Positions 14,879 through 58,311 of a DNA stretch of 64,000 bases are shown here, one piece after another (position 1 is the stretch's first letter; each line of letters starts with the position of its first letter). The position numbers were made by a program, and so were the translations under genes. Below the pieces are notes generated by a model. It made no database searches. It was given only the letters and a program-made list of their open reading frames with translations, and was not told where the DNA came from. Origin of the DNA: an uncultured Gammaproteobacteria bacterium (GTDB lineage Bacteria; Patescibacteriota; Microgenomatia; UBA8517); contig CAZRGC010000003.1 of the NCBI GenBank assembly GCA_964599625.1, positions 97,759 through 161,758 of the forward strand, given 5' to 3'.

Positions 14879-17107
14879 ATGAATTTAAAAGATTTTTTGT
14901 CCAACAAAGGAAAACCACCCGAACTCTATTGGTCGTTGGTATTGGAAGACGGTTGGGTTCAAGCCGGTATTTGGTATATAGATCAGTCTGTTGCGCAGGT
15001 TGTTGGAACAAGTCCCGCAGCAGCATGGGAAGTCAAAGAAGAATTGGTTGGAGCAACTGATTCAGCTTTGTCTTCGGCGATTCAAAGACTTCCGGAGGAT
15101 TACCCCGAACCCAACAAGACAGTGTTTGGCGTTCCTTCTTCATGGGTCAAAAACGGCGAGATCGACGAAGATCATTTGAGGTTGATTAAAAAAATTTGTT
15201 CAGAACTATCATTGATACCTGTGGGTTTTGTTGTGCTTCCTGAAGCAATTGCACATCTTTACAAGTCTGAAGAAGGGGCGCCTGTTAATGCGATAGTAAT
15301 GGGAATAGGGAGAGAGAATTTGGAAATTGCAGTGTTTTCTTTGGGTAATCTGTTGGGTACAACTCAGGTTGCCAGAAGTGTGTCTTTAATCGATGATGTT
15401 ACCGAGGGGCTATCCAGATTTGAAAGCTCTTCACCGCTCCCGTCTAGGTTTATTCTTTTTGACGGAAAAGGGGGAGAGTTGGAGGATGCTAAAGACCAAA
15501 TCCTAAAAAATCGTTGGGAAGAGAGTGAAAGAGTCAAATTTTTACACACACCAAAAGCTGAAATATTGCTCCCCGAAAGGAAAGTTTTGGCAACGTCTTT
15601 GGCGGGTGCAAACGAAATTGCAGATGTCTCAAAAGTTGAAACTCAAGACCAAAAAGAAGTTATCGAAGGTCCCTATACGGAGAACATCCCACCCGAAACA
15701 GCAAATGTCCAGGAAACAAACGAAGTTACACCTGAAGACCTTGGTTTTTCTTTGGATTCCGACGTGAGTTTGAACAAACAGGTTGAACCTGATGTTGTAA
15801 AAGCTTTTGAAAAACCGCCGGCTACTGAGCACGTGCAGCCCACGATTCACCGTCAATCTCCTGTTTTTGAACATAAGCCAAAAATTAACCTTAAAGAAAT
15901 GTTCAATAAAGTGAAAACAAAAGCATCGGCTTTGCTGAAAAGACTTTCGTTTTCGGCAAAAATCTCTTCTGCCAGACATGGAGTGATGAAGCCGGTGTAT
16001 CTGGTTGTTCTTGTGCTTGTTTTGGCAGGACTAGGGGCGCTTTGGTGGTTTGTACCCAAAGCGGAAGTAGTTGTATATGTTAGGCCTCAAATAGTTCAGG
16101 AAGAAACAGAAGTTGTATTTACAACTAGTGGCCAGGGTGACATAAATTCGGGGTTGGTTGCTGCCAAATCCGTGACCTCTAATGTTAGCGGCGAAAAGAC
16201 GAAGTCGGCAACTGGAAGCAAACTTGTCGGTGACAAAGCCAAGGGTACAGTACAAATTCAAAACGGCACAGCATTTCCAATCAATCTGACTGCCGGAACT
16301 TTTTTGGTGTCGTCGGGTAATTTAAAATTCGAACTTGATCAGGCAGCCTCAGTCTCTGCTGCGCTGTCCCCGACTTCGCCGGGAACGGCTAGCTTGTCTG
16401 TGACGGCGGGTTCGATAGGCGCGGAATACAATTTGGCAAAAAGTGAAGTATTCAAGGTAGGCAATTATCCCAAAGCCGAGGTTGATGCCACATCAATAAC
16501 CGACTTTGCAGGAGGAAGCTCCAGACAGATTTCAGCCGTAAGCAAAGTGGATATTGAAACATTGCAAACTTCACTTAAAGAGGAGCTAGTACAAAAAGCA
16601 AAGGAAGATTTATCGTCTAAGGTTTTAGACGGCCAAGTGTTGGTTTCTGATTTTGTTTCAAGCGATGTTGCATCCGAAACATTTGATCACAAACAGGGTG
16701 AAGAAGCCAACAACGTTAAGTTAAATATGGAGATTGCTGCCAATGCGCTTGTGGCCGACAAGAACAATTTATATGATTTTGCATCAAAAGTTCTGACTGA
16801 CAAAAAACCGGAGGGTTTTGTTTTAAGAAACGAACAAATAAAGTTCGAGTTTAGTTTTGTGGAACAAAAAGACGAGGGTTATGTTTACAAGGTAAAAATC
16901 AATGCAAATTTCCTACCTTCATTTTCTGAGAAGGACATAGTAGATAAAATTATTGGAAAGAACCGGGCAACCGCAAAAAATTATCTGTCGAGTATTCCTG
17001 GCTTCGTAAGGGTGGAACTGAAAATCAATCCGCCTTATCCGTTTATATTTAACAGCCTTCCAAGAGTTAGAAAAAACATTGATATTACAGTTGAGGCAGA
17101 CAGGTAG
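14879..17107 (+). CDS. membrane-anchored protein: divergent FtsA/PilM-like actin-fold N-domain, TM helix, beta-rich extracytoplasmic domain
   Basis: 742 aa. The N-terminal pattern (VFGVPSSW..LIPVGFVVLPEAIAHLY..AIVMGIGRENLEIAVF) resembles an actin-like ATPase. The TM segment is VYLVVLVLVLAGLGALWWFV. The C-terminal region has repeated G.a.G.v patterns reminiscent of baseplate-J-like proteins (weak). Confidence 0.35.
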   Translation: MNLKDFLSNKGKPPELYWSLVLEDGWVQAGIWYIDQSVAQVVGTSPAAAWEVKEELVGATDSALSSAIQRLPEDYPEPNKTVFGVPSSWVKNGEIDEDHLRLIKKICSELSLIPVGFVVLPEAIAHLYKSEEGAPVNAIVMGIGRENLEIAVFSLGNLLGTTQVARSVSLIDDVTEGLSRFESSSPLPSRFILFDGKGGELEDAKDQILKNRWEESERVKFLHTPKAEILLPERKVLATSLAGANEIADVSKVETQDQKEVIEGPYTENIPPETANVQETNEVTPEDLGFSLDSDVSLNKQVEPDVVKAFEKPPATEHVQPTIHRQSPVFEHKPKINLKEMFNKVKTKASALLKRLSFSAKISSARHGVMKPVYLVVLVLVLAGLGALWWFVPKAEVVVYVRPQIVQEETEVVFTTSGQGDINSGLVAAKSVTSNVSGEKTKSATGSKLVGDKAKGTVQIQNGTAFPINLTAGTFLVSSGNLKFELDQAASVSAALSPTSPGTASLSVTAGSIGAEYNLAKSEVFKVGNYPKAEVDATSITDFAGGSSRQISAVSKVDIETLQTSLKEELVQKAKEDLSSKVLDGQVLVSDFVSSDVASETFDHKQGEEANNVKLNMEIAANALVADKNNLYDFASKVLTDKKPEGFVLRNEQIKFEFSFVEQKDEGYVYKVKINANFLPSFSEKDIVDKIIGKNRATAKNYLSSIPGFVRVELKINPPYPFIFNSLPRVRKNIDITVEADR

Positions 17108-17145: not shown

Positions 17146-17826
17146 ATGGATCAACGTACAGTTCTTAGAATATCGGCAATAATCTCAGGTATATCAGGGG
17201 TAATAATACTGGTTGGAGTTTTTTATCCAATAATTTCATACAATTCATCAAAAACCATACCACTCGTTGCACCCGTAACCGAAGAAAATTCCGGTAACCC
17301 TGTTGTTGAAGGTTATCAAACCACACAAAGTTTGGACTACACCCAGGCCAGCAATTGGTTTCAGGGTGGTAATGTTACCAAGAGTGACTTTATTTCTTCG
17401 AAAATTGAATACTACACAATAACCATCCCCAAACTGAAAATTGACTCTGCAACTGTGGCAATTGGTGGAGAGGATTTAAGCAGCCACCTTATACAGTATC
17501 CCGGAACCGCCGTACCGGGAAAAAGGGGAAACTCAGCGATTTTTGGACATTCTATTTTGCCAATTTTTTACAACCCCAAAAATTATCTTGCAATATTTTC
17601 ACTTCTGCCAACCCTTAAGAAAGGTGACGAGATTTTCATCAACTACGACGGTATAGCCTACACTTATAAGGTTGAGTCCATGTTTGAAGTTCTTCCAACA
17701 GACATTCAAGTTCTTGACCAGGATTCCTCTGACTCATTTTTGACACTTGTCACATGCGTACCTCCGGGAGACCCAGGACAACCAAGGAGGCTTGTTGTTA
17801 GGGCAAGAGTTGTTCCGCCTACTTAA
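17146..17826 (+). CDS. sortase family transpeptidase
   Basis: N-terminal TM anchor, catalytic His (AIFGHS), the TLVTC motif, and a conserved Arg (RLVVRA). Confidence 0.85.
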   Translation: MDQRTVLRISAIISGISGVIILVGVFYPIISYNSSKTIPLVAPVTEENSGNPVVEGYQTTQSLDYTQASNWFQGGNVTKSDFISSKIEYYTITIPKLKIDSATVAIGGEDLSSHLIQYPGTAVPGKRGNSAIFGHSILPIFYNPKNYLAIFSLLPTLKKGDEIFINYDGIAYTYKVESMFEVLPTDIQVLDQDSSDSFLTLVTCVPPGDPGQPRRLVVRARVVPPT

Positions 17827-42655: not shown

Positions 42656-42841
42656 ATGGCAACAACAGCAAAAGAAGTAAGAGAAACAAAAAAATTAAAG
42701 TACGCAATTAGGTACCGCAATAGGTGCCGCCTTTGCGGAAGAAGCAGAGGTTACCTTAGAAAATATGGTATTTGCAGACTGTGTTTTAGAGAGCATGCCT
42801 TAAGAGGTGAAATTCCAGGTGTCAGAAAGGCAAGTTGGTAA
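42656..42841 (+). CDS. rpsN: 30S ribosomal protein S14, type Z (zinc form)
   Basis: 61 aa with [23 protein letters not shown]. Confidence 0.95.
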
Positions 42842-44201: not shown

Positions 44202-44708
44202 ATGGCAAATTTTAACCGAACATATGCCGACCAGGCACCAAAAGAATATGAGGAGACAGTTGTTCAAATAAACAGGATCTCCAAAAAGACAAAAGGTGGA
44301 AACACAATGAGATTTTCTGCACTTATTGTGGTGGGCAACAGAAAAGGAAGAGTTGGGGTTGGTATGGCCAAGGCACACGACGTTAGAAACGCAATCCGAA
44401 AATCAATCGAGGCAGCCAAAAGAAATTTGGTGGACGTTCCTCTTACTGGAACAACCATCCCTTACTCAGTAAGCGAAAAGTATTCTGCAGCTAAAATTCT
44501 TTTGAAACCAGCACCCCCCGGATCCGGAATTATTGCAGGCGGACCAATGAGAGTTGTTTTGGAAGCGGCAGGAATCAGAGATGCAGTCGGAAAAATTTTG
44601 GGAACAAAGAATAAAATTTCTAATGTTTATGCGACACTCAAGGCGCTGGAGCAAGTATCACGCCTTGTTGTTATGAAGAAAAATGAGCCAAAAGCAGAAA
44701 CTAAATAA
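44202..44708 (+). CDS. rpsE: 30S ribosomal protein S5
   Basis: VVQINRISKKTKGGNTMRFSALIVVGN..GRVGVGMAKA. Confidence 0.95.
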   Translation: MANFNRTYADQAPKEYEETVVQINRISKKTKGGNTMRFSALIVVGNRKGRVGVGMAKAHDVRNAIRKSIEAAKRNLVDVPLTGTTIPYSVSEKYSAAKILLKPAPPGSGIIAGGPMRVVLEAAGIRDAVGKILGTKNKISNVYATLKALEQVSRLVVMKKNEPKAETK

Positions 44709-44710
44709 CT

Positions 44711-45118
44711 ATGAGCAAATTACCAAAAGTTGTAACAAAGTCAAAAAAGAGAATCGGTAGAGGTTTTGGAACCGGTAAAGGTGGACACACCACAAACCGC
44801 GGACAGAAGGGGCAAAAATCCCGTGGTTCCATTGGAGTTCTTTTCGAAGGAATGAAAGTCAAGAAGTCACTTCTTAAAAGACTTCCATTGCAGCGCGGAA
44901 AAGGAAAGTTCAAAGCCAACGGAAAACCGGTTATTGTTACCCTTACCGACCTGGATATTCTCCCAACCGGTAGTGAAATTACTTTAGATCTTTTGATCAA
45001 AGAGAACTTGGTCGACCCTATTTTAGGCCGAAAATTCGGAGTAAAAGTCTTGGGAGGAGGAAAATCTACCAAGAAATTTACTTTCAAAGTCCCAACTTCC
45101 AAATCTGTAGCCAAATAA
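44711..45118 (+). CDS. rplO: 50S ribosomal protein L15
   Basis: KRIGRGFGTGKGGHTTNRGQKGQKSR. It starts 2 nt after the rpsE stop, so there is no rpmD between them. Confidence 0.94.
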   Translation: MSKLPKVVTKSKKRIGRGFGTGKGGHTTNRGQKGQKSRGSIGVLFEGMKVKKSLLKRLPLQRGKGKFKANGKPVIVTLTDLDILPTGSEITLDLLIKENLVDPILGRKFGVKVLGGGKSTKKFTFKVPTSKSVAK

Positions 45119-45122
45119 ATAT

Positions 45123-45599
45123 ATGACAGAAAGTCCAACACCTGTTGGAGAAGAAGCAGAAAAACTACAAAAAACATCACTTTTAGTGATGTATTCACGC
45201 CAAGATATGGCAGATACAGCCCTTGAGGTAATAAAAGAACTTAGGGAAGCAGGTCTTAATGTCATCGATATAAACGATAAGATTGCAGATGGCTCGTGGG
45301 TGGGTGAGTCGGATAAAATATTGGAAAATACCCCAGCAGTTCTTGTTATTCCATCAAAATCCATAAAAGAAGATGGTTTGGTTAAGGACGCAGTTTACCG
45401 TGCCGACATGCTAAGGGTAGAAAAAAGAAAGAGAATCGTTCCAATATTTTTTCAGGCTAATGCAAATGTTTCGATAGGAGGCCTTGGCAGCCTTGCCGGA
45501 ATAAATTGGGACGGTGAGACAGAAGGGATTCAAAATTTTGATAAGACTGCAGCTTTCGGCCACCTCAAAACTTTTGTCGCCCAAAATACTAATTCATAA
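45123..45599 (+). CDS. TIR-like domain protein (tentative)
   Basis: SLLVMYSRQDMADTALEVIKELREAGLNVIDINDKIADGSW..AVLVIPSKSI..RIVPIFF follows the bacterial TIR_2 layout (hSYSxxD, G..W, hhhhS, hhPhhh). The conserved catalytic Glu is not evident. Confidence 0.4.
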   Translation: MTESPTPVGEEAEKLQKTSLLVMYSRQDMADTALEVIKELREAGLNVIDINDKIADGSWVGESDKILENTPAVLVIPSKSIKEDGLVKDAVYRADMLRVEKRKRIVPIFFQANANVSIGGLGSLAGINWDGETEGIQNFDKTAAFGHLKTFVAQNTNS

Positions 45600-45601
45600 A
45601 C

Positions 45602-46030
45602 ATGGAAACAATTAAACCTAACGGGTTTTTGACAAGCTTCGAGTTTGAGGGATTAAAACTTCCTGTGGAATACGTGAGAACAGATCAAGTTTGTGAGGGT
45701 GTAACTTGCGACGTTTACAAATTTTGGGGAGACAAAAAGAAGGACTTGGCGATAATAACAATACAACCTGACGCCAAAACACCACCCCAAAAAGTTTTGT
45801 CGGGAGAAAAAACAATCGAAGGATATATTTCGGGATCGGGTGTATTTACAGTGAAAAAGGACGACGGGGGTGAAGAAAGAATATTGGTAGAAGATAAGCC
45901 CACAGAGTACTTTTCAATTCAAGTAAACGTAGGGGACACAATGCAATGGAAAGCTTCGGAAGATTCTATTCTTACTGTTTTTGAAGTTTGCTACCCCCCA
46001 TACGAAGACGGCAGGTTTCAAAATCTTTAG
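45602..46030 (+). CDS. cupin-fold protein (tentative)
   Basis: 142 aa, beta-rich. GYISGSGVFTV...VNVGDTMQW...LTVFEVCYPP resembles the two cupin motifs. Confidence 0.4.
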   Translation: METIKPNGFLTSFEFEGLKLPVEYVRTDQVCEGVTCDVYKFWGDKKKDLAIITIQPDAKTPPQKVLSGEKTIEGYISGSGVFTVKKDDGGEERILVEDKPTEYFSIQVNVGDTMQWKASEDSILTVFEVCYPPYEDGRFQNL

Positions 46031-46045
46031 TGTTATACTTCCAAT

Positions 46046-46489
46046 ATGTCCCGCGATAGATTCAGACTTCTTGCAGCGTGTTACTTATTGCCAATAAAGG
46101 GGAAGAAAGTTCTTTTGTCCCGCCGTTTTAACACTGGCTGGAAGGATGGTTGGTATTCCTTGATTGCAGGGCATTTGGATGGCAACGAATCTGTAAGCGA
46201 CTCAATGATTCGTGAAGCGAAAGAGGAGTCTGGTATTGAAATTGCCAAAAAAGACTTGGTTCCTTTAACCTCCGTTCACCACAAAACAGAAGACTCAGAA
46301 TATGTGGACTTTTTCTTCGCAGTAAAAAAGTGGAAAGGTGAACCGCAAATCAAGGAGCCCAACAAGTGTGACGATATGTCCTGGTTTCCAATAGACAAAC
46401 TTCCGGAAAAATTACTTCCACACGTTAAGCAAATAATTCAAAACCTGGACTCCAATGTTCCTTTTTTTGAACACGGATGGAACAAATAA
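46046..46489 (+). CDS. NUDIX hydrolase
   Basis: Complete Nudix box GHLDGNESVSDSMIREAKEESGI (Gx5Ex7REx2EExGU). Confidence 0.85.
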   Translation: MSRDRFRLLAACYLLPIKGKKVLLSRRFNTGWKDGWYSLIAGHLDGNESVSDSMIREAKEESGIEIAKKDLVPLTSVHHKTEDSEYVDFFFAVKKWKGEPQIKEPNKCDDMSWFPIDKLPEKLLPHVKQIIQNLDSNVPFFEHGWNK

Positions 46490-46504
46490 CTGCTAAACTA
46501 TTTT

Positions 46505-47476
46505 GTGGCTCAAAAAGAAGACGACTCCTACCAAAAATATCTTGAAGACAAACACTTGGCATTTGCAACGCCCGAAAGTCTGGTATCGTCTATGGTAAAA
46601 AAGGCAACGGGATCAGAACCCTTTTCTGTCGAAAAGTTGATTCAGGGTGAAGTGAACGAGGTTTATGATGTGGAGGCTGGTGGTCAAAATGTAATAGTAA
46701 GAATTTCCCGACAAGGACCGGAAAATTTTGAAACCGAAGAAACTGTAATACGCCTCGCTTTGCAAGCAGGTGTACCCGCTCCCAAAGTTCTTCTTTTGGA
46801 ATCTGCCTCAACCGAAACCGAAGAATTGACCTTTTGTATAGAAGAAAAGATTGAAGGAAAGCCATTGAAAGAATTACTAAAAACTCTGGACGCAGAAACT
46901 CTCAAGGCAATTCTGATTCAGTCGGGCGAGATATTATCCCGTATCCATTCATTGGAAACGGACAGATTTGGGCCCTTGGATAGGCAGGTCTTTTATCCTT
47001 CATGGACAGAATATTTATTCAGGAAGGAAGAAAATAAACGTGAGATAATTGAGTATGGCTCTAAAGTGGGACTCCTGCCCGGTGTTATAGATAAAGCCTT
47101 TTCTATACAAAGGAAAAACTCAGGAATTTTGGAAATACAAATCCCCTATATTCTGCACGGCGATTTTAGTCCCAAACACATTCTCACGAATGGAAAAACA
47201 GTCACTGGAATAATAGATTTTGAAGACGCCAAAGGAGGCGATCCGGTGAGAGATATTGCTTGGATGAACTTTTTTTATGGCGATTCGGTAAATCTTGAGT
47301 GGTTTTTAGAAGGATACGGAAGGGAAAAAACAGGAATGGACTTTGATATAAAAATGAGACTTTTGAAAGTTAACTTGGGACTGGACCTGTTGGATTATTA
47401 CGGATCAGAAGGTAATATTTCAGGACTTAAATACTCGAAACGTAAATTGGAGGAAGAGATGGAATTTTTCAAATGA
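46505..47476 (+). CDS. APH/choline-kinase-family phosphotransferase (GTG start)
   Basis: Kinase-like N-lobe (VYDVEAGGQNVIVRI), catalytic loop ILHGDFSPKHIL, and metal-binding IIDFEDA. Confidence 0.75.
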   Translation: MAQKEDDSYQKYLEDKHLAFATPESLVSSMVKKATGSEPFSVEKLIQGEVNEVYDVEAGGQNVIVRISRQGPENFETEETVIRLALQAGVPAPKVLLLESASTETEELTFCIEEKIEGKPLKELLKTLDAETLKAILIQSGEILSRIHSLETDRFGPLDRQVFYPSWTEYLFRKEENKREIIEYGSKVGLLPGVIDKAFSIQRKNSGILEIQIPYILHGDFSPKHILTNGKTVTGIIDFEDAKGGDPVRDIAWMNFFYGDSVNLEWFLEGYGREKTGMDFDIKMRLLKVNLGLDLLDYYGSEGNISGLKYSKRKLEEEMEFFK

Positions 47477-47483
47477 CCCGACA

Positions 47484-48065
47484 ATGAATTCAAACACAAT
47501 AGTAATTTTGGGAACCCTGATTGGTGCAATTGGCTCGATCTTTTATCTTGTCGACGTTGTTAAGGGAAAAATAAAACCCAATCGGGTTTCTTTTATTCTT
47601 TGGTCACTCCCACCATTGATATCTGCATACGCAAATATTAAAAGTGGCGGTGGAATTGAATCTTTAATGACTTTTAGTGTTGGTTTTTTTCCACTGCTTA
47701 TATTTTTGGCAACTTTTCTCAACAAAAAATCCGTTTGGAAACTTACCAAATTTGATTTTGTTTGCGGCGCACTTTCACTTTTGGGATTCCTGCTTTGGCA
47801 GGTAACAAAAGAAGGATATTTGGCAATAACTTTTAGTATAGTTTCCGATTTTTTGGCTGGAATTCCCACCATAACAAAAACTTACAAACACCCAGAAACG
47901 GAACTGGCTTGGCCCTGGTTGATGCCGGTCTTGGGAGAAATTCTTACACTTTCCACACTTGGGGATATTACTTATCTCAACTCAGGTTTCATGATTTACG
48001 TAACTTTGTATAACACAGTCATTTTTCTTTTGGCGCAGTATAAAATCGGAAAGATATGGAAATAA
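47484..48065 (+). CDS. polytopic membrane protein, unknown function
   Basis: 193 aa with about six hydrophobic segments. Confidence 0.55.
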   Translation: MNSNTIVILGTLIGAIGSIFYLVDVVKGKIKPNRVSFILWSLPPLISAYANIKSGGGIESLMTFSVGFFPLLIFLATFLNKKSVWKLTKFDFVCGALSLLGFLLWQVTKEGYLAITFSIVSDFLAGIPTITKTYKHPETELAWPWLMPVLGEILTLSTLGDITYLNSGFMIYVTLYNTVIFLLAQYKIGKIWK

Positions 48066-48562
48066 TTAAACTACCTGTTTCAGAGTGGAAAAGTTATAAA
48101 GCAATAAGGCTTCGAGCTCTCAAGGAAGACCCTCAGGCATTTGGAGCCTCATACGACGATGCGGTCAAATTTGACGAGTCCGAATGGAGACGCAGGCTTG
48201 AAAATGCCGAAAATTCGGACAGAAGTTGGTTATGGTTTGCACAAGAAAACCAGAAAATTGTAGGCCTTATTGGGGCATATATGGAAAAAGGTGCAACAAA
48301 TGAGGCAACTATAGTTTCTGTTTTTGTTCCCAAGGAAGAAAGAGGGAAAGGAATATCGAGCCTTTTGATGGATAAGATGATATCCGAACTTTCAGCTAAA
48401 CCATATCTCAAAAAAATTAATTTGACTGTGAACAAAGACCAAGTAGCGGCCGTAAATCTTTATACAAAGTTTGGTTTCGTAAAAGTCGGTGAGCAAAATT
48501 TTAAAATGGGAAACGGTCAGAAGGCTGTGGAATTTGTTATGGAAAGACAAATTAGCACTTAA
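48056..48562 (+). CDS. GNAT family N-acetyltransferase
   Basis: Motif A VFVPKEERGKGISSLLM, and a C-terminal NLYTKFGF. Confidence 0.8.
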   Translation: MEIIKLPVSEWKSYKAIRLRALKEDPQAFGASYDDAVKFDESEWRRRLENAENSDRSWLWFAQENQKIVGLIGAYMEKGATNEATIVSVFVPKEERGKGISSLLMDKMISELSAKPYLKKINLTVNKDQVAAVNLYTKFGFVKVGEQNFKMGNGQKAVEFVMERQIST

Positions 48563-48565
48563 GGT

Positions 48566-48595
48566 CTGTCATTGATAACTTAGTTGCGATATAAT
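48566..48595 (+). promoter_or_regulatory. possible promoter upstream of secY
   Basis: CTGTCA (48566-48571), an 18-nt spacer, then TATAAT (48590-48595). The -35 is weak. Confidence 0.3.
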
Positions 48596-48606
48596 TCAAC
48601 TTCGGT

Positions 48607-49890
48607 ATGTTTGAACAAATTTTGAATTTCTTCAAGAAAGCTGTAACCACACCTTCTATTAGGAAGAAGCTTCTGGTTACCGCGGTTATCCTTGTTGTAT
48701 TTCGTTTGGCAGGACATATCCCGGCCGCAGGAATAGATCGCAATACACTCACCGCACTCTTTTTGGGAAGCCCTCTTCTTTCGCTTTTGGATGTGTTTTC
48801 CGGAGGAACTCTTGCAAACTTTTCTATTTTGGCCTTAGGGCTTAACCCTTACATCAATGCATCCATTATTTTGCAGCTTTTGGGTTATGTAGTTCCATCG
48901 TTGGAAGCCTTGCAAAAAGAGGGTGAGTACGGCCAGGAGAAAATAAATCAGTACACAAGGCTTTTGACAGTGCCTCTTGCGGCTCTCCAGGCGTTTGGTA
49001 TGTACGCACTCCTTAAGGGGCAAAATGTAATTTCCAATCTTGCTCCTTTGGAACTTTTGGCTTTGGTGATTACGATGACAGCCGGAACTGTTTTCTCGGT
49101 TTGGTTGGGAGAGCTGATTAGCGAGTATGGATTTAAAAATGGAGTTTCCCTGCTAATTTTTACAGGAATAGTAGCAAGACTTCCTGTTGTTTTGGGACAG
49201 TCGGCCAGTGTTGTACAGTCGCAGGATATTCTGAAAGTAATTCTCTTCCTGGTTGTAGCAGCTTTGGTTGTGGGAATGATTATTTTCATAAGTGAAGCTT
49301 CCCGCAAAATCCCAATACACTATGCAAAAAGACGCACCGACACAGGTTTGGGGGCAACTTCCTATTTACCACTAAGACTCAATCAAGCAGGTGTGATTCC
49401 TATCATATTCGCGGTTTCATTGGTTTTGATACCTTCGCTTATGGGTCAGTTTTTGGCCAACATTCCAAATGCTGCTGTTGCGAATGCTGCCAGATTCATA
49501 AGTACTGCATTTAATCCCCAGTCTGTTGTCTATAACCTTACATATTTTGTTTTAGTGTTTGGTTTCACTTATTTTTATACAGCGGTTATTTTCAATCCGG
49601 ATAAAATTTCCGAAGATTTACAAAAAGGTGGAGGTTTTATTCCGGGAATCAGACCCGGAAAAGAAACATCCAAATATTTGTCTTTCGTTTTGTCTCGTTT
49701 GACAGTGGTTGGAGGAGTGTTTTTGGGTTTGGTTGCTGTCATGCCTTCTTTCTTTCAAAATTCGATTGGTGCCAGTAATTTAGCAATTGGAGGAACTGGG
49801 GTGTTGATTGTTGTTTCTGTGGCTTTGGAAATTGTCAGAGAAATGGAAGGTGAGTTGGTAATGGGTAAGTATGAAGGTTTTCTAAGATGA
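48607..49890 (+). CDS. secY: preprotein translocase subunit SecY
   Basis: 427 aa, 10-TM pattern, with [16 protein letters not shown] and [13 protein letters not shown]. Confidence 0.96.
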
Positions 49891-57180: not shown

Positions 57181-57251
57181 CGGGGTGTAGTTTACCGGTA
57201 GAATGGGCGCATGGGGTGCGTCCGGACTGAGTTCAATTCTCAGCACCCCGA
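57181..57251 (+). tRNA. tRNA-Pro (anticodon GGG), no encoded CCA
   Basis: Hand-folded cloverleaf. The acceptor is CGGGGTG/CACCCCG and U8 is present. The D-loop carries GG. The anticodon stem is GGCGC/GCGTC with loop AU-GGG-GU. The T arm is CTGAG-TTCAATT-CTCAG. The discriminator is A. Confidence 0.75.
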
Positions 57252-57754
57252 CCGAATGGTGGGTTTAGTTTATAAAGGTCGGCAAGGGTTTTTTTGACGC
57301 TTTCAAAACCGATATTTTTAAGATTTGGAATATCTTTGATATCCACCCAAACCAGTTCTGATACGTCGTCACTTGCTTCTATCTCTCCACCCGTAATCTC
57401 CACAATAAACTGAAATACTAATATTGGTTTGTCCGCATCACCATATGTGTCGGGATAATTCCCGAGAAGTCTGATTACTTTAACATCAAGCCCTGTTTCT
57501 TCTTTTGTTTCCCGAATAGCAGCCTCTTCAGCTGACTCTCCCGGGTTTATAAATCCTCCAATCACATCATATGTTCCTTTGAATGGTTCGTTTTTTCTTA
57601 TTGCCAGAAGTACTTTATTGTTTTTTATGGGAATTGCTGAGGCGCCGGGTACAGGGTCTTGGTAAATACTAAACCCGCAGTCCAAACAAATGATTTTGGT
57701 TTCTTTGAGGTCCAGTTTCCGACTTCCGCAAACAGGGCAAAATATATATTTCAT
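57233..57754 (-). CDS. NUDIX hydrolase with N-terminal zinc ribbon
   Basis: MKYIFCPVCGSRKL..CLDCG, and Nudix box GGFINPGESAEEAAIRETKEETGL. The start at 57754 forms an ATGA overlap with the upstream gene's stop. The 3' end overlaps tRNA-Pro by 19 nt on the opposite strand. Confidence 0.8.
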   Translation of the reverse strand: MKYIFCPVCGSRKLDLKETKIICLDCGFSIYQDPVPGASAIPIKNNKVLLAIRKNEPFKGTYDVIGGFINPGESAEEAAIRETKEETGLDVKVIRLLGNYPDTYGDADKPILVFQFIVEITGGEIEASDDVSELVWVDIKDIPNLKNIGFESVKKTLADLYKLNPPFGRGAEN

Positions 57755-58311
57755 TTTTCTACCTTCGAATTTTCGAACATTGTCTTTAGTGTCTTCCAAT
57801 TCTCTGGTAACGGTGTGCCATTTTGTGATAATTCCAAAGCAAAAAGAATTATTTTTTCGTCTCCATCTTGCCAATCCTCAATTCTTCTGTCGGGATAATA
57901 ATAACCATTCGGTGGTATTTGGATGTCTTTGTTTACCTTGTAATCAGTAAAATACTGAGGTATTTTGTCGGGAAACATGTGTGCAATTCCCGAAAAGGCG
58001 TCCATAACAGAAGCGGCATATTTTGAACCGTTTTCGGAAACATCAGGGCCGTCTTCCACATGTCTTTGTAAATTTTTTATATGCATGTGCAACACTTTTG
58101 TTTCAAATACTTTCTTTTTTCCATCCTTGGTTACCGGCAGATAAACCTGACTTCCACCTTGGTCCAAGATGTAATCATGTGACACTTTGTCCAATACACT
58201 TCTGGCTTTTTCCCTGAAGTCGTTGCCAAGACGTTCTGTTAAGTGCAAATTATTTTCGGCAAGTTTTCCTGTGTGTTGTCTCAATTCTATTTTGTCGTTT
58301 GTTGAGTCCAT
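57751..58311 (-). CDS. hypothetical protein
   Basis: 186-aa ORF, translationally coupled (ATGA) to the Nudix gene. No motif recognised. Confidence 0.55.
   Translation of the reverse strand: MDSTNDKIELRQHTGKLAENNLHLTERLGNDFREKARSVLDKVSHDYILDQGGSQVYLPVTKDGKKKVFETKVLHMHIKNLQRHVEDGPDVSENGSKYAASVMDAFSGIAHMFPDKIPQYFTDYKVNKDIQIPPNGYYYPDRRIEDWQDGDEKIILFALELSQNGTPLPENWKTLKTMFENSKVEK

Follow-up and report, generated by a model that had tools for sequence, protein, structure and literature searches.

A TIR-fold protein with alanine at the catalytic glutamate position, encoded by hypervariable alleles in the rplO–secY gap of a ribosomal operon

The open reading frame (ORF) directly behind rplO in the 64,000-nucleotide stretch of DNA analysed here (the window) is a real gene on which purifying selection acts, and its product is a standalone TIR-fold protein. 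The NADase chemistry of TIR domains is well known, as are the domains themselves, and to our knowledge those of bacteria are seen almost exclusively as enzymes that cleave NAD+ in anti-phage systems. The new elements are a bacterial TIR clade in which the Ala of the catalytically dead mutant is fixed, yet which is under purifying selection inside a core ribosomal operon, and the turnover of this TIR as divergent alleles between otherwise near-identical genomes. A literature search found TIR proteins described neither from Patescibacteria or ribosomal operons nor in a pairing with Nudix or cupin genes, and it found no account of a bacterial TIR clade combining a fixed Ala at the Glu, a ribosomal operon and hypervariability among near-identical genomes. 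We propose a non-catalytic binding TIR that is expressed with the ribosomal operon, kept allelically diverse and possibly conflict-related, a composite reading that, judged from sequence, stands about as good a chance of being right as of being wrong. Taken alone, its first part, a TIR fold that is not an NADase, is likely; the conflict-related part, taken alone, is tentative and somewhat doubtful. The features of the region are collected in Table 1.

Table 1 Features between rplO and secY, in coordinates of the window
Feature	Position	Strand	Basis
rplO (ribosomal protein L15), conserved upstream flank	44711-45118	+	PF00828 Ribosomal_L27A/L15, E 4e-05, above curated cutoff
rplO/TIR junction, last L15 codons to about the first 9 TIR codons	45104-45149	+	Junction alignments
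TIR gene, standalone TIR-fold protein of 158 aa, ATG start	45123-45599	+	ORF list, Pfam
Hypervariable segment, most of the TIR ORF	45150-45599	+	Sliding-window identity, pS, per-gene identities, junction alignments
Ala94 codon (GCC), in the catalytic-Glu position of TIR NADases (SARM1 E642)	45402-45404	+	HMMER alignment to the SARM1 TIR domain
ORF142, cupin (jelly-roll), without a Pfam family	45602-46030	+	AlphaFold pLDDT 93.3, Foldseek top matches cupins
Nudix hydrolase, MutT/NUDX1-like, intact Nudix box	46046-46489	+	PF00293, E 4.8e-18
APH-family small-molecule kinase; closest solved relative hygromycin-B 4-O-kinase	46505-47476	+	
193-aa multi-pass membrane protein, without a Pfam model	47484-48065	+	About 7 hydrophobic segments by eye
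GNAT acetyltransferase	48056-48562	+	
secY, conserved downstream flank of the six-gene insert	48607-49890	+	Pfam SecY, E 5.8e-106

The ORF behind rplO encodes a TIR domain

The TIR ORF starts 4 nt past the L15 stop codon, and its product is composed of an N-terminal helix, a β-α TIR core and a C-terminal helix. Residues 22-131 align with positions 3-110 of the 122-position profile of PF13676 (TIR_2), with an E value of 6e-09 and a score of 36.9 bits against the Pfam gathering score of 28, and the same assignment is precomputed on all four members of the family. The predicted structure is a flavodoxin-like β-α fold, for which solved TIR domains give the best superposition; this model was computed from an alignment of four sequences, and pLDDT in the other four AlphaFold models reaches only 58-64. 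The preliminary description had proposed a possible TIR-domain protein directly after L15 from the order of motifs in a peptide that corresponds to residues 19-110 of the translation. Both the hmmscan match to PF13676, which lies above the gathering score, and the TIR fold given by structure prediction bear this proposal out, and the E value of the TIR_2 match shows that the motif order is not due to chance.

The protein resembles the TIR_2 proteins, including Thoeris ThsB, in being a small standalone TIR domain with an agreeing predicted fold, and it has the motif order of TIR_2/ThsB: a YSxxD strand, a D..D BB-loop, a hydrophobic strand ending in S, and a VPI strand. SARM1, AbTir and the plant TIR NADases have the same fold and a core that can be aligned with it; the TIR domain of SARM1 is the best TIR match among PDB sequences (E about 0.1) and stands near the top in Foldseek. 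An identity as nucleoside 2-deoxyribosyltransferase or DNPH1 was rejected, with structural scores below those of TIR domains and with the nucleophile Glu motif (D.G...E.G) absent; Pfam PF05014 and PF15891 gave no match. The gene is single copy, with no TIR paralogue in the window. Searches of the protein against PHROGs and NCBIfam returned no matches, and among PADLOC models only SAVED_TIR appeared, at chance level (E 0.017, 12.2 bits), with no match to the ThsB model.

A tiny family with a zinc-ribbon sister family

Among 5.8 billion proteins the TIR family accounts for 4 clusters; when 1.84 billion representatives were searched exhaustively by HMM, 47 matched at E <= 1e-3. Scanning JGI metagenome contigs with the family alignment found no relatives, and a scan of GTDB genomes returned only the already known contig L001. 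The closest relatives form an uncharacterised family (P0005, P0011, P0012, P0022, P0031 and P0046; E 2.7e-24 to 8e-4) of proteins of about 215 aa, whose N-terminal part, some 55 aa long, is a CxxC...CxxC zinc ribbon placed ahead of a TIR-like domain lacking the Glu. This sister family resembles the TIR protein in its N-terminal helix, GxxW strand, C-terminal helix and missing Glu, and differs from it by the zinc ribbon and by a location outside ribosomal operons. In three of the five contexts sampled, its gene has an EamA (DMT) transporter gene as neighbour (L009, 793-1542, minus strand; L010, 712-1350, plus strand; L011, 1-345, minus strand), whereas in L019-L021 the gene is monocistronic and lies between a PolX-like gene and a GIY-YIG gene. 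The contigs of the sister family are mostly shorter than 1.6 kb, and its neighbourhoods are thus thinly sampled.

Alanine occupies the position of the catalytic glutamate

In a profile search of PDB sequences, the TIR segment KDAVYRADMLRVEKRKRIVPIF was aligned with the TIR domain of SARM1. Counting the SARM1 numbering from Y568, K597, G601 and W638, which we take to be the landmarks, places E642 opposite Ala94 and W638 opposite Ala90. A 26-sequence alignment gives the same picture across the families: the catalytic-Glu column holds Ala in 4/4 family members and A, S or I in 7/7 members of the zinc-ribbon sister family, and Glu in SARM1 and in all 14 canonical TIR_2 proteins, which were those recovered by the exhaustive HMM search. 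Asp95, the neighbour of Ala94, is not conserved and is Ile in two alleles.

The Glu is needed for NADase and cADPR-isomer activity in AbTir (E208), TcpO (E279), BdTIR (E127) and ThsB (E85), and its exchange for Ala is a routine catalytic-dead control in TIR enzymes (PMC10022894). The TIR protein thus has Ala where ThsB has E85 and AbTir has E208 (PMC10022894), and the conserved Glu on helix αC that marks enzymatic TIRs, SARM1 E642 included, is absent from it. The preliminary description had found this Glu not obvious, which was correct and can now be put more strongly, with the column located at a specific Ala. Since the E-to-A exchange is the standard dead mutant and Ala is found in the whole clade, the TIR protein is very probably not an NADase. 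We infer that it neither cleaves NAD+ nor makes ADPR-type signals; an unconventional catalytic residue or a different substrate is possible. Of the two readings offered earlier, a TIR–Nudix signalling pair and a degenerate non-catalytic TIR, the latter fits best, given Ala for Glu throughout the clade.

The TIR gene is hypervariable among near-identical genomes

Alleles were analysed on five contigs, mostly metagenome assemblies, in which L003, L004 and L017 represent close relatives of the window organism and L001 a more distant one. In the close relatives, about 25 flanking genes encode proteins 89-100% identical to those of the window, most ribosomal proteins being 96-100% identical and the rplO product 99%. 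The TIR protein is only 54% identical to that of the window in L003/L004 and 75% in L017, which makes its gene by far the most variable one in the per-gene identity table; towards the distant L001 it falls to 51%, the lowest value of all genes. The change is sharply confined at the nucleotide level: sliding identity is 0.93-1.00 outside and 0.50-0.72 across the TIR ORF, with divergence beginning after about codon 10 and ending at the TIR stop codon and ORF142 start codon.

Synonymous sites show the same confinement. Between L017 and L003, pS is 0.09 in L15, 0.22 in the cupin, 0.12 in Nudix and 0.22 in APH, as against a saturated 0.80 in TIR, where pN is 0.28 and thus far below pS. For the hypervariable segment, pS is 0.75-0.80 as against 0.09-0.22 in neighbouring genes. 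Over the TIR alleles as a whole, pN is 0.16-0.33 against a saturated pS of 0.70-0.80; with dS saturated, positive selection is not measurable by a formal test. Each of the five alleles is an intact ORF of 157-158 aa. Conservation is 81-100% in strands βC, βD and βE and 36-38% in helix αA and the BB-loop/αB, a focus of variation that is also expected of any α/β protein. Neutral decay cannot make a gene diverge more at synonymous sites than its neighbours in the same genomes do, and these data therefore indicate that the TIR gene has been replaced by anciently diverged alleles, with purifying selection acting within each. Moreover, the TIR allele tree conflicts with the backbone: the allele of L003 shares 64% identity with that of the distant L001, and only 54-55% with those of the window and L017.

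The loss of the catalytic Glu and the high amino-acid divergence could also mark a decaying relic of a former TIR enzyme with no current function. Such a relic is hard to reconcile with five intact alleles, the low ratio of pN to pS, the conserved β-strands and a synonymous divergence beyond the reach of neutral decay, and we regard it as extremely unlikely. Two mechanisms of allele change were considered and rejected. Site-specific cassette exchange is not supported, with neither direct nor inverted repeats flanking the variable segment. A diversity-generating retroelement does not fit either, with the whole ORF diverged at synonymous and non-synonymous sites and not in a short adenine-targeted tract. 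Further dips in nucleotide identity to close relatives (0.62-0.80) are located at 46355-46700 (3' part of Nudix and 5' part of APH) and at 47267-47600 (3' part of APH and 5' part of the membrane-protein gene), and these secondary dips suggest more mosaic recombination inside the cassette.

Across the three close relatives, hardly a nucleotide of the rplO/TIR junction varies, and identity to the distant L001 is about 80%. A UCUGU/ACAGA stem predicted in the junction RNA encloses both the stop codon and the start codon; L001 supplies one compensatory pair, and the folding z-score is only -1.74. A second hairpin, CCAAC/GUUGG, is predicted at 45135-45148. These predictions hint weakly that the RNA is structured where rplO ends and TIR begins. 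The conserved junction also encodes the invariant TIR N-terminus MTESPTPVG, upstream of the 5' divergence boundary. Because a similar TE..G motif is present in the zinc-ribbon sister family, a protein-level role of this N-terminus is possible.

The gene lies in a six-gene insert of the ribosomal operon

The region between rplO and secY is filled by six genes in the order TIR, ORF142 cupin, Nudix (HAD in L001/L002), APH kinase, membrane protein and GNAT, and L15, S5 and SecY are all confirmed by Pfam. All four contexts of sufficient length share the insert (L001, L002, L004 and L017, with L004 stopping inside GNAT), and L003 agrees as far as its contig extends; the TIR gene is found between rplO and secY in every family contig long enough to show this. 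ORF142 starts 2 nt past the TIR stop codon, and the intergenic gaps of the insert measure 2-45 nt. The GC content of 0.37-0.42 is the same as that of the flanks, so a recent foreign origin of the TIR gene is not supported.

From rplO to secY, the plus strand contains a single terminator-like site, a 6-bp consensus match at 47574-47589 inside the membrane-protein ORF, and a promoter-like site is located upstream of secY. Because the operon is packed, with no intergenic terminator-like site on the plus strand from rplO to secY, the TIR gene in this spc-type ribosomal operon is probably co-transcribed with the ribosomal proteins. Among the other products of the insert, the ORF142 cupin has 41 homologues with invariant residues including E73, Q115, W116, E128 and R138. 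The membrane protein belongs to a family of 672 homologues at about 60% identity across phyla (Anaerolineales, Bacteroidales and Amesbacteria), with a mean column identity of 78% in their alignment; neither Pfam nor a profile search against PDB sequences gave a match for it.

The position directly after rplO, the invariant junction with its possible coupling structure and the probable co-transcription with ribosomal proteins would suit a ribosome- or translocon-associated factor acting with L15 or SecY. However, ribosome partners are 99-100% conserved whereas the TIR protein is hypervariable, the family is tiny (4 clusters and 47 weak representatives), relatives fill the rplO–secY gap with unrelated genes, and the sister family lies outside ribosomal operons. 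A factor of this kind is therefore highly improbable.

The Nudix gene pairs with the cupin gene

A Nudix gene is indeed present two genes downstream of the TIR gene, as the preliminary description had noted. Its suggestion that the two form a nucleotide-signalling pair is not supported. In that model, an active TIR NADase or signal generator would release an ADPR-type product to be processed by the Nudix hydrolase. In its favour are the TIR_2 match and TIR fold, an intact-box Nudix gene at this place in four of the five allele contexts, and one PDB relative of the Nudix protein labelled 'ADP-ribose pyrophosphatase MutT'. Against it, all members carry Ala at the catalytic Glu, and the equivalent of SARM1 W638 is also Ala. 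In addition, L001/L002 have a HAD hydrolase where Nudix would be, with TIR and the other genes still in place. The best relatives of the Nudix protein are of NUDX1/MutT type, every NCBIfam match being below cutoff; reading of its sequence finds the Nudix box intact, with neither the ADPRase Pro 16 residues past the box nor the NADH motif SQPWPFPxS. Scans of the neighbouring genes and of 26 window ORFs found no SIR2, Macro or SLOG domain, as would be expected of an NAD-dependent effector. Finally, Nudix genes recur beside the cupin and not beside TIR. An active TIR–Nudix pair is very unlikely.

The association of cupin and Nudix extends to contexts without TIR. In L015/L016, a cupin gene lies directly after L15, with no TIR gene, and adjoins a different Nudix gene (26% identity). 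In L012, a Saccharibacteria MAG, the cupin gene adjoins yet another Nudix gene (25% identity) outside the ribosomal operon. The recurrent pairing is that of cupin with Nudix, not of TIR with Nudix, because the cupin adjoins these non-orthologous Nudix genes in the absence of TIR. Functionally, the Nudix hydrolase would then belong with the accessory cassette of cupin, kinase, membrane protein and GNAT rather than with TIR. The rplO–secY gap is a variable slot for accessory genes (45119-48606 in the window, 6998-11746 in L015 and 7996-11652 in L001), in which TIR is a lineage-specific addition. The slot of L015 contains genes for a cupin, an NDT-like protein, a Nudix protein, a TPR protein, GrpB, CYTH and DHH/DHHA2 proteins and a 98-aa ORF. 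If the pattern holds, the rplO–secY gap is an accessory-gene slot in reduced-genome bacteria. For annotation, a TIR_2 protein encoded next to a Nudix gene calls for a check of the catalytic residue and of the conservation of the pairing before the two are named an NAD signalling system.

The NDT-like protein, of 137 aa, is encoded on the minus strand beside cupin and Nudix in L015 (7437-7850) and L016 (4423-4812). The L015 protein has a weak match to nucleoside 2-deoxyribosyltransferases (PF05014, E 0.0035) and an intact Glu motif, 'GGNTLMEIGFA'. Homology between TIR and this protein of the same fold class was rejected, the hhalign probability being 0.3.

The composition of the cassette raises another alternative, in which TIR is a housekeeping ligand-binding or regulatory subunit: the Glu-less domain would bind a nucleotide or other ligand without cleaving it, and the small molecule that the cassette salvages, modifies or detoxifies would be similar to a nucleoside, a sugar or an aminoglycoside. 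The gene order and tight spacing kept in all contexts agree with this, as do conserved polar residues at the C-terminal ends of the β-strands, the usual ligand site of the fold. Moreover, the TIR-less L015 has the NDT-like protein of the same fold class by cupin and Nudix in the same slot, and the sister family adjoins EamA transporter genes in the three contexts given above. However, a subunit should co-evolve with its partners, whereas TIR alleles are 50-75% identical against 89-95% for cupin, kinase and membrane protein. TIR also has no detectable homology to the L015 NDT-like protein, and the cupin–Nudix pairing occurs without TIR. Overall, we consider a housekeeping subunit rather unlikely.

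A binding module with exchanged alleles as the preferred reading

In the non-catalytic reading that we prefer, the TIR protein would work as a binding module, through TIR–TIR, TIR–protein or ligand contacts, as adaptor TIRs do. Its alleles are probably exchanged by homologous recombination in the conserved flanks, L15 and the cupin gene, and diversifying or balancing selection would keep them diverse. The pattern of allele diversity would be typical of a protein facing a changing partner, for example a phage or host factor. The high allelic diversity of TIR is reminiscent of phage-sensing ThsB proteins, a resemblance that serves here as a lead only.

Other features set the TIR gene apart from Thoeris. 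Thoeris needs an adjacent ThsA (SIR2-SLOG or TM-Macro), whereas TIR is followed by the cupin, Nudix or HAD, APH, membrane-protein and GNAT genes. Unlike ThsB, the gene is located in a ribosomal operon rather than a defence island. Three observations argue against a classical defence system: the housekeeping nature of the operon, the lack of matches in PADLOC and PHROGs, and the missing effector.

A more specific version of the preferred reading, which we regard as improbable, is that the catalytically silent TIR, expressed in step with the making of ribosomes, is an NAD-independent sensor, decoy or adaptor at the phage or host interface of an ultra-small bacterium of Patescibacteria type. If true, this would make it a bacterial counterpart of the animal adaptor TIRs. 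With these (TRIF, TRAM, MyD88 and MAL) the TIR protein has a sequence identity of only 9-14%; unlike them, it is bacterial, lacks receptor or death-domain partners and shows no sign of filament formation. More broadly, the observed pattern, if it holds, would suggest that bacteria employ TIR domains as adaptor-like modules without enzymatic activity.

Additional features of the window

The other scanned ORFs of the window are mostly housekeeping genes, including PNPase, RNase J, FtsK, AlaRS, sortase, RuvX, YceG and RecA, though Pfam matched nothing in several; elsewhere, rpoB, rpoC and EF-Tu are suggested by ORF size only. A scan of the whole 64 kb at Rfam gathering thresholds gave zero RNA families, with no tRNA and no ribosomal-protein leader, despite the ribosomal-protein and rpoBC arrays. 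A second Nudix gene, of 213 aa, is located near recA (57233-57874, minus strand; PF00293, E 3.8e-21) and may overlap an unannotated 186-aa ORF at 57751-58311. The 742-aa ORF at 14879-17107 (plus strand), upstream of the sortase gene, has only a sub-threshold Baseplate_J-like match (E 5.5e-4).

No L30 gene (rpmD) is present between S5 and L15, which are separated by a gap of 2 nt at 44708-44711. S14, at 42656-42841, is a 61-aa protein of the zinc type; the sortase gene spans 17146-17826, and AlaRS is short, at 609 aa. Together these features fit a genome of the Patescibacteria/Saccharibacteria type. From the missing L30, the sortase, the short AlaRS and the labelled homologues of the cupin (Candidatus Saccharibacteria/Patescibacteria), we infer a Patescibacteria lineage.
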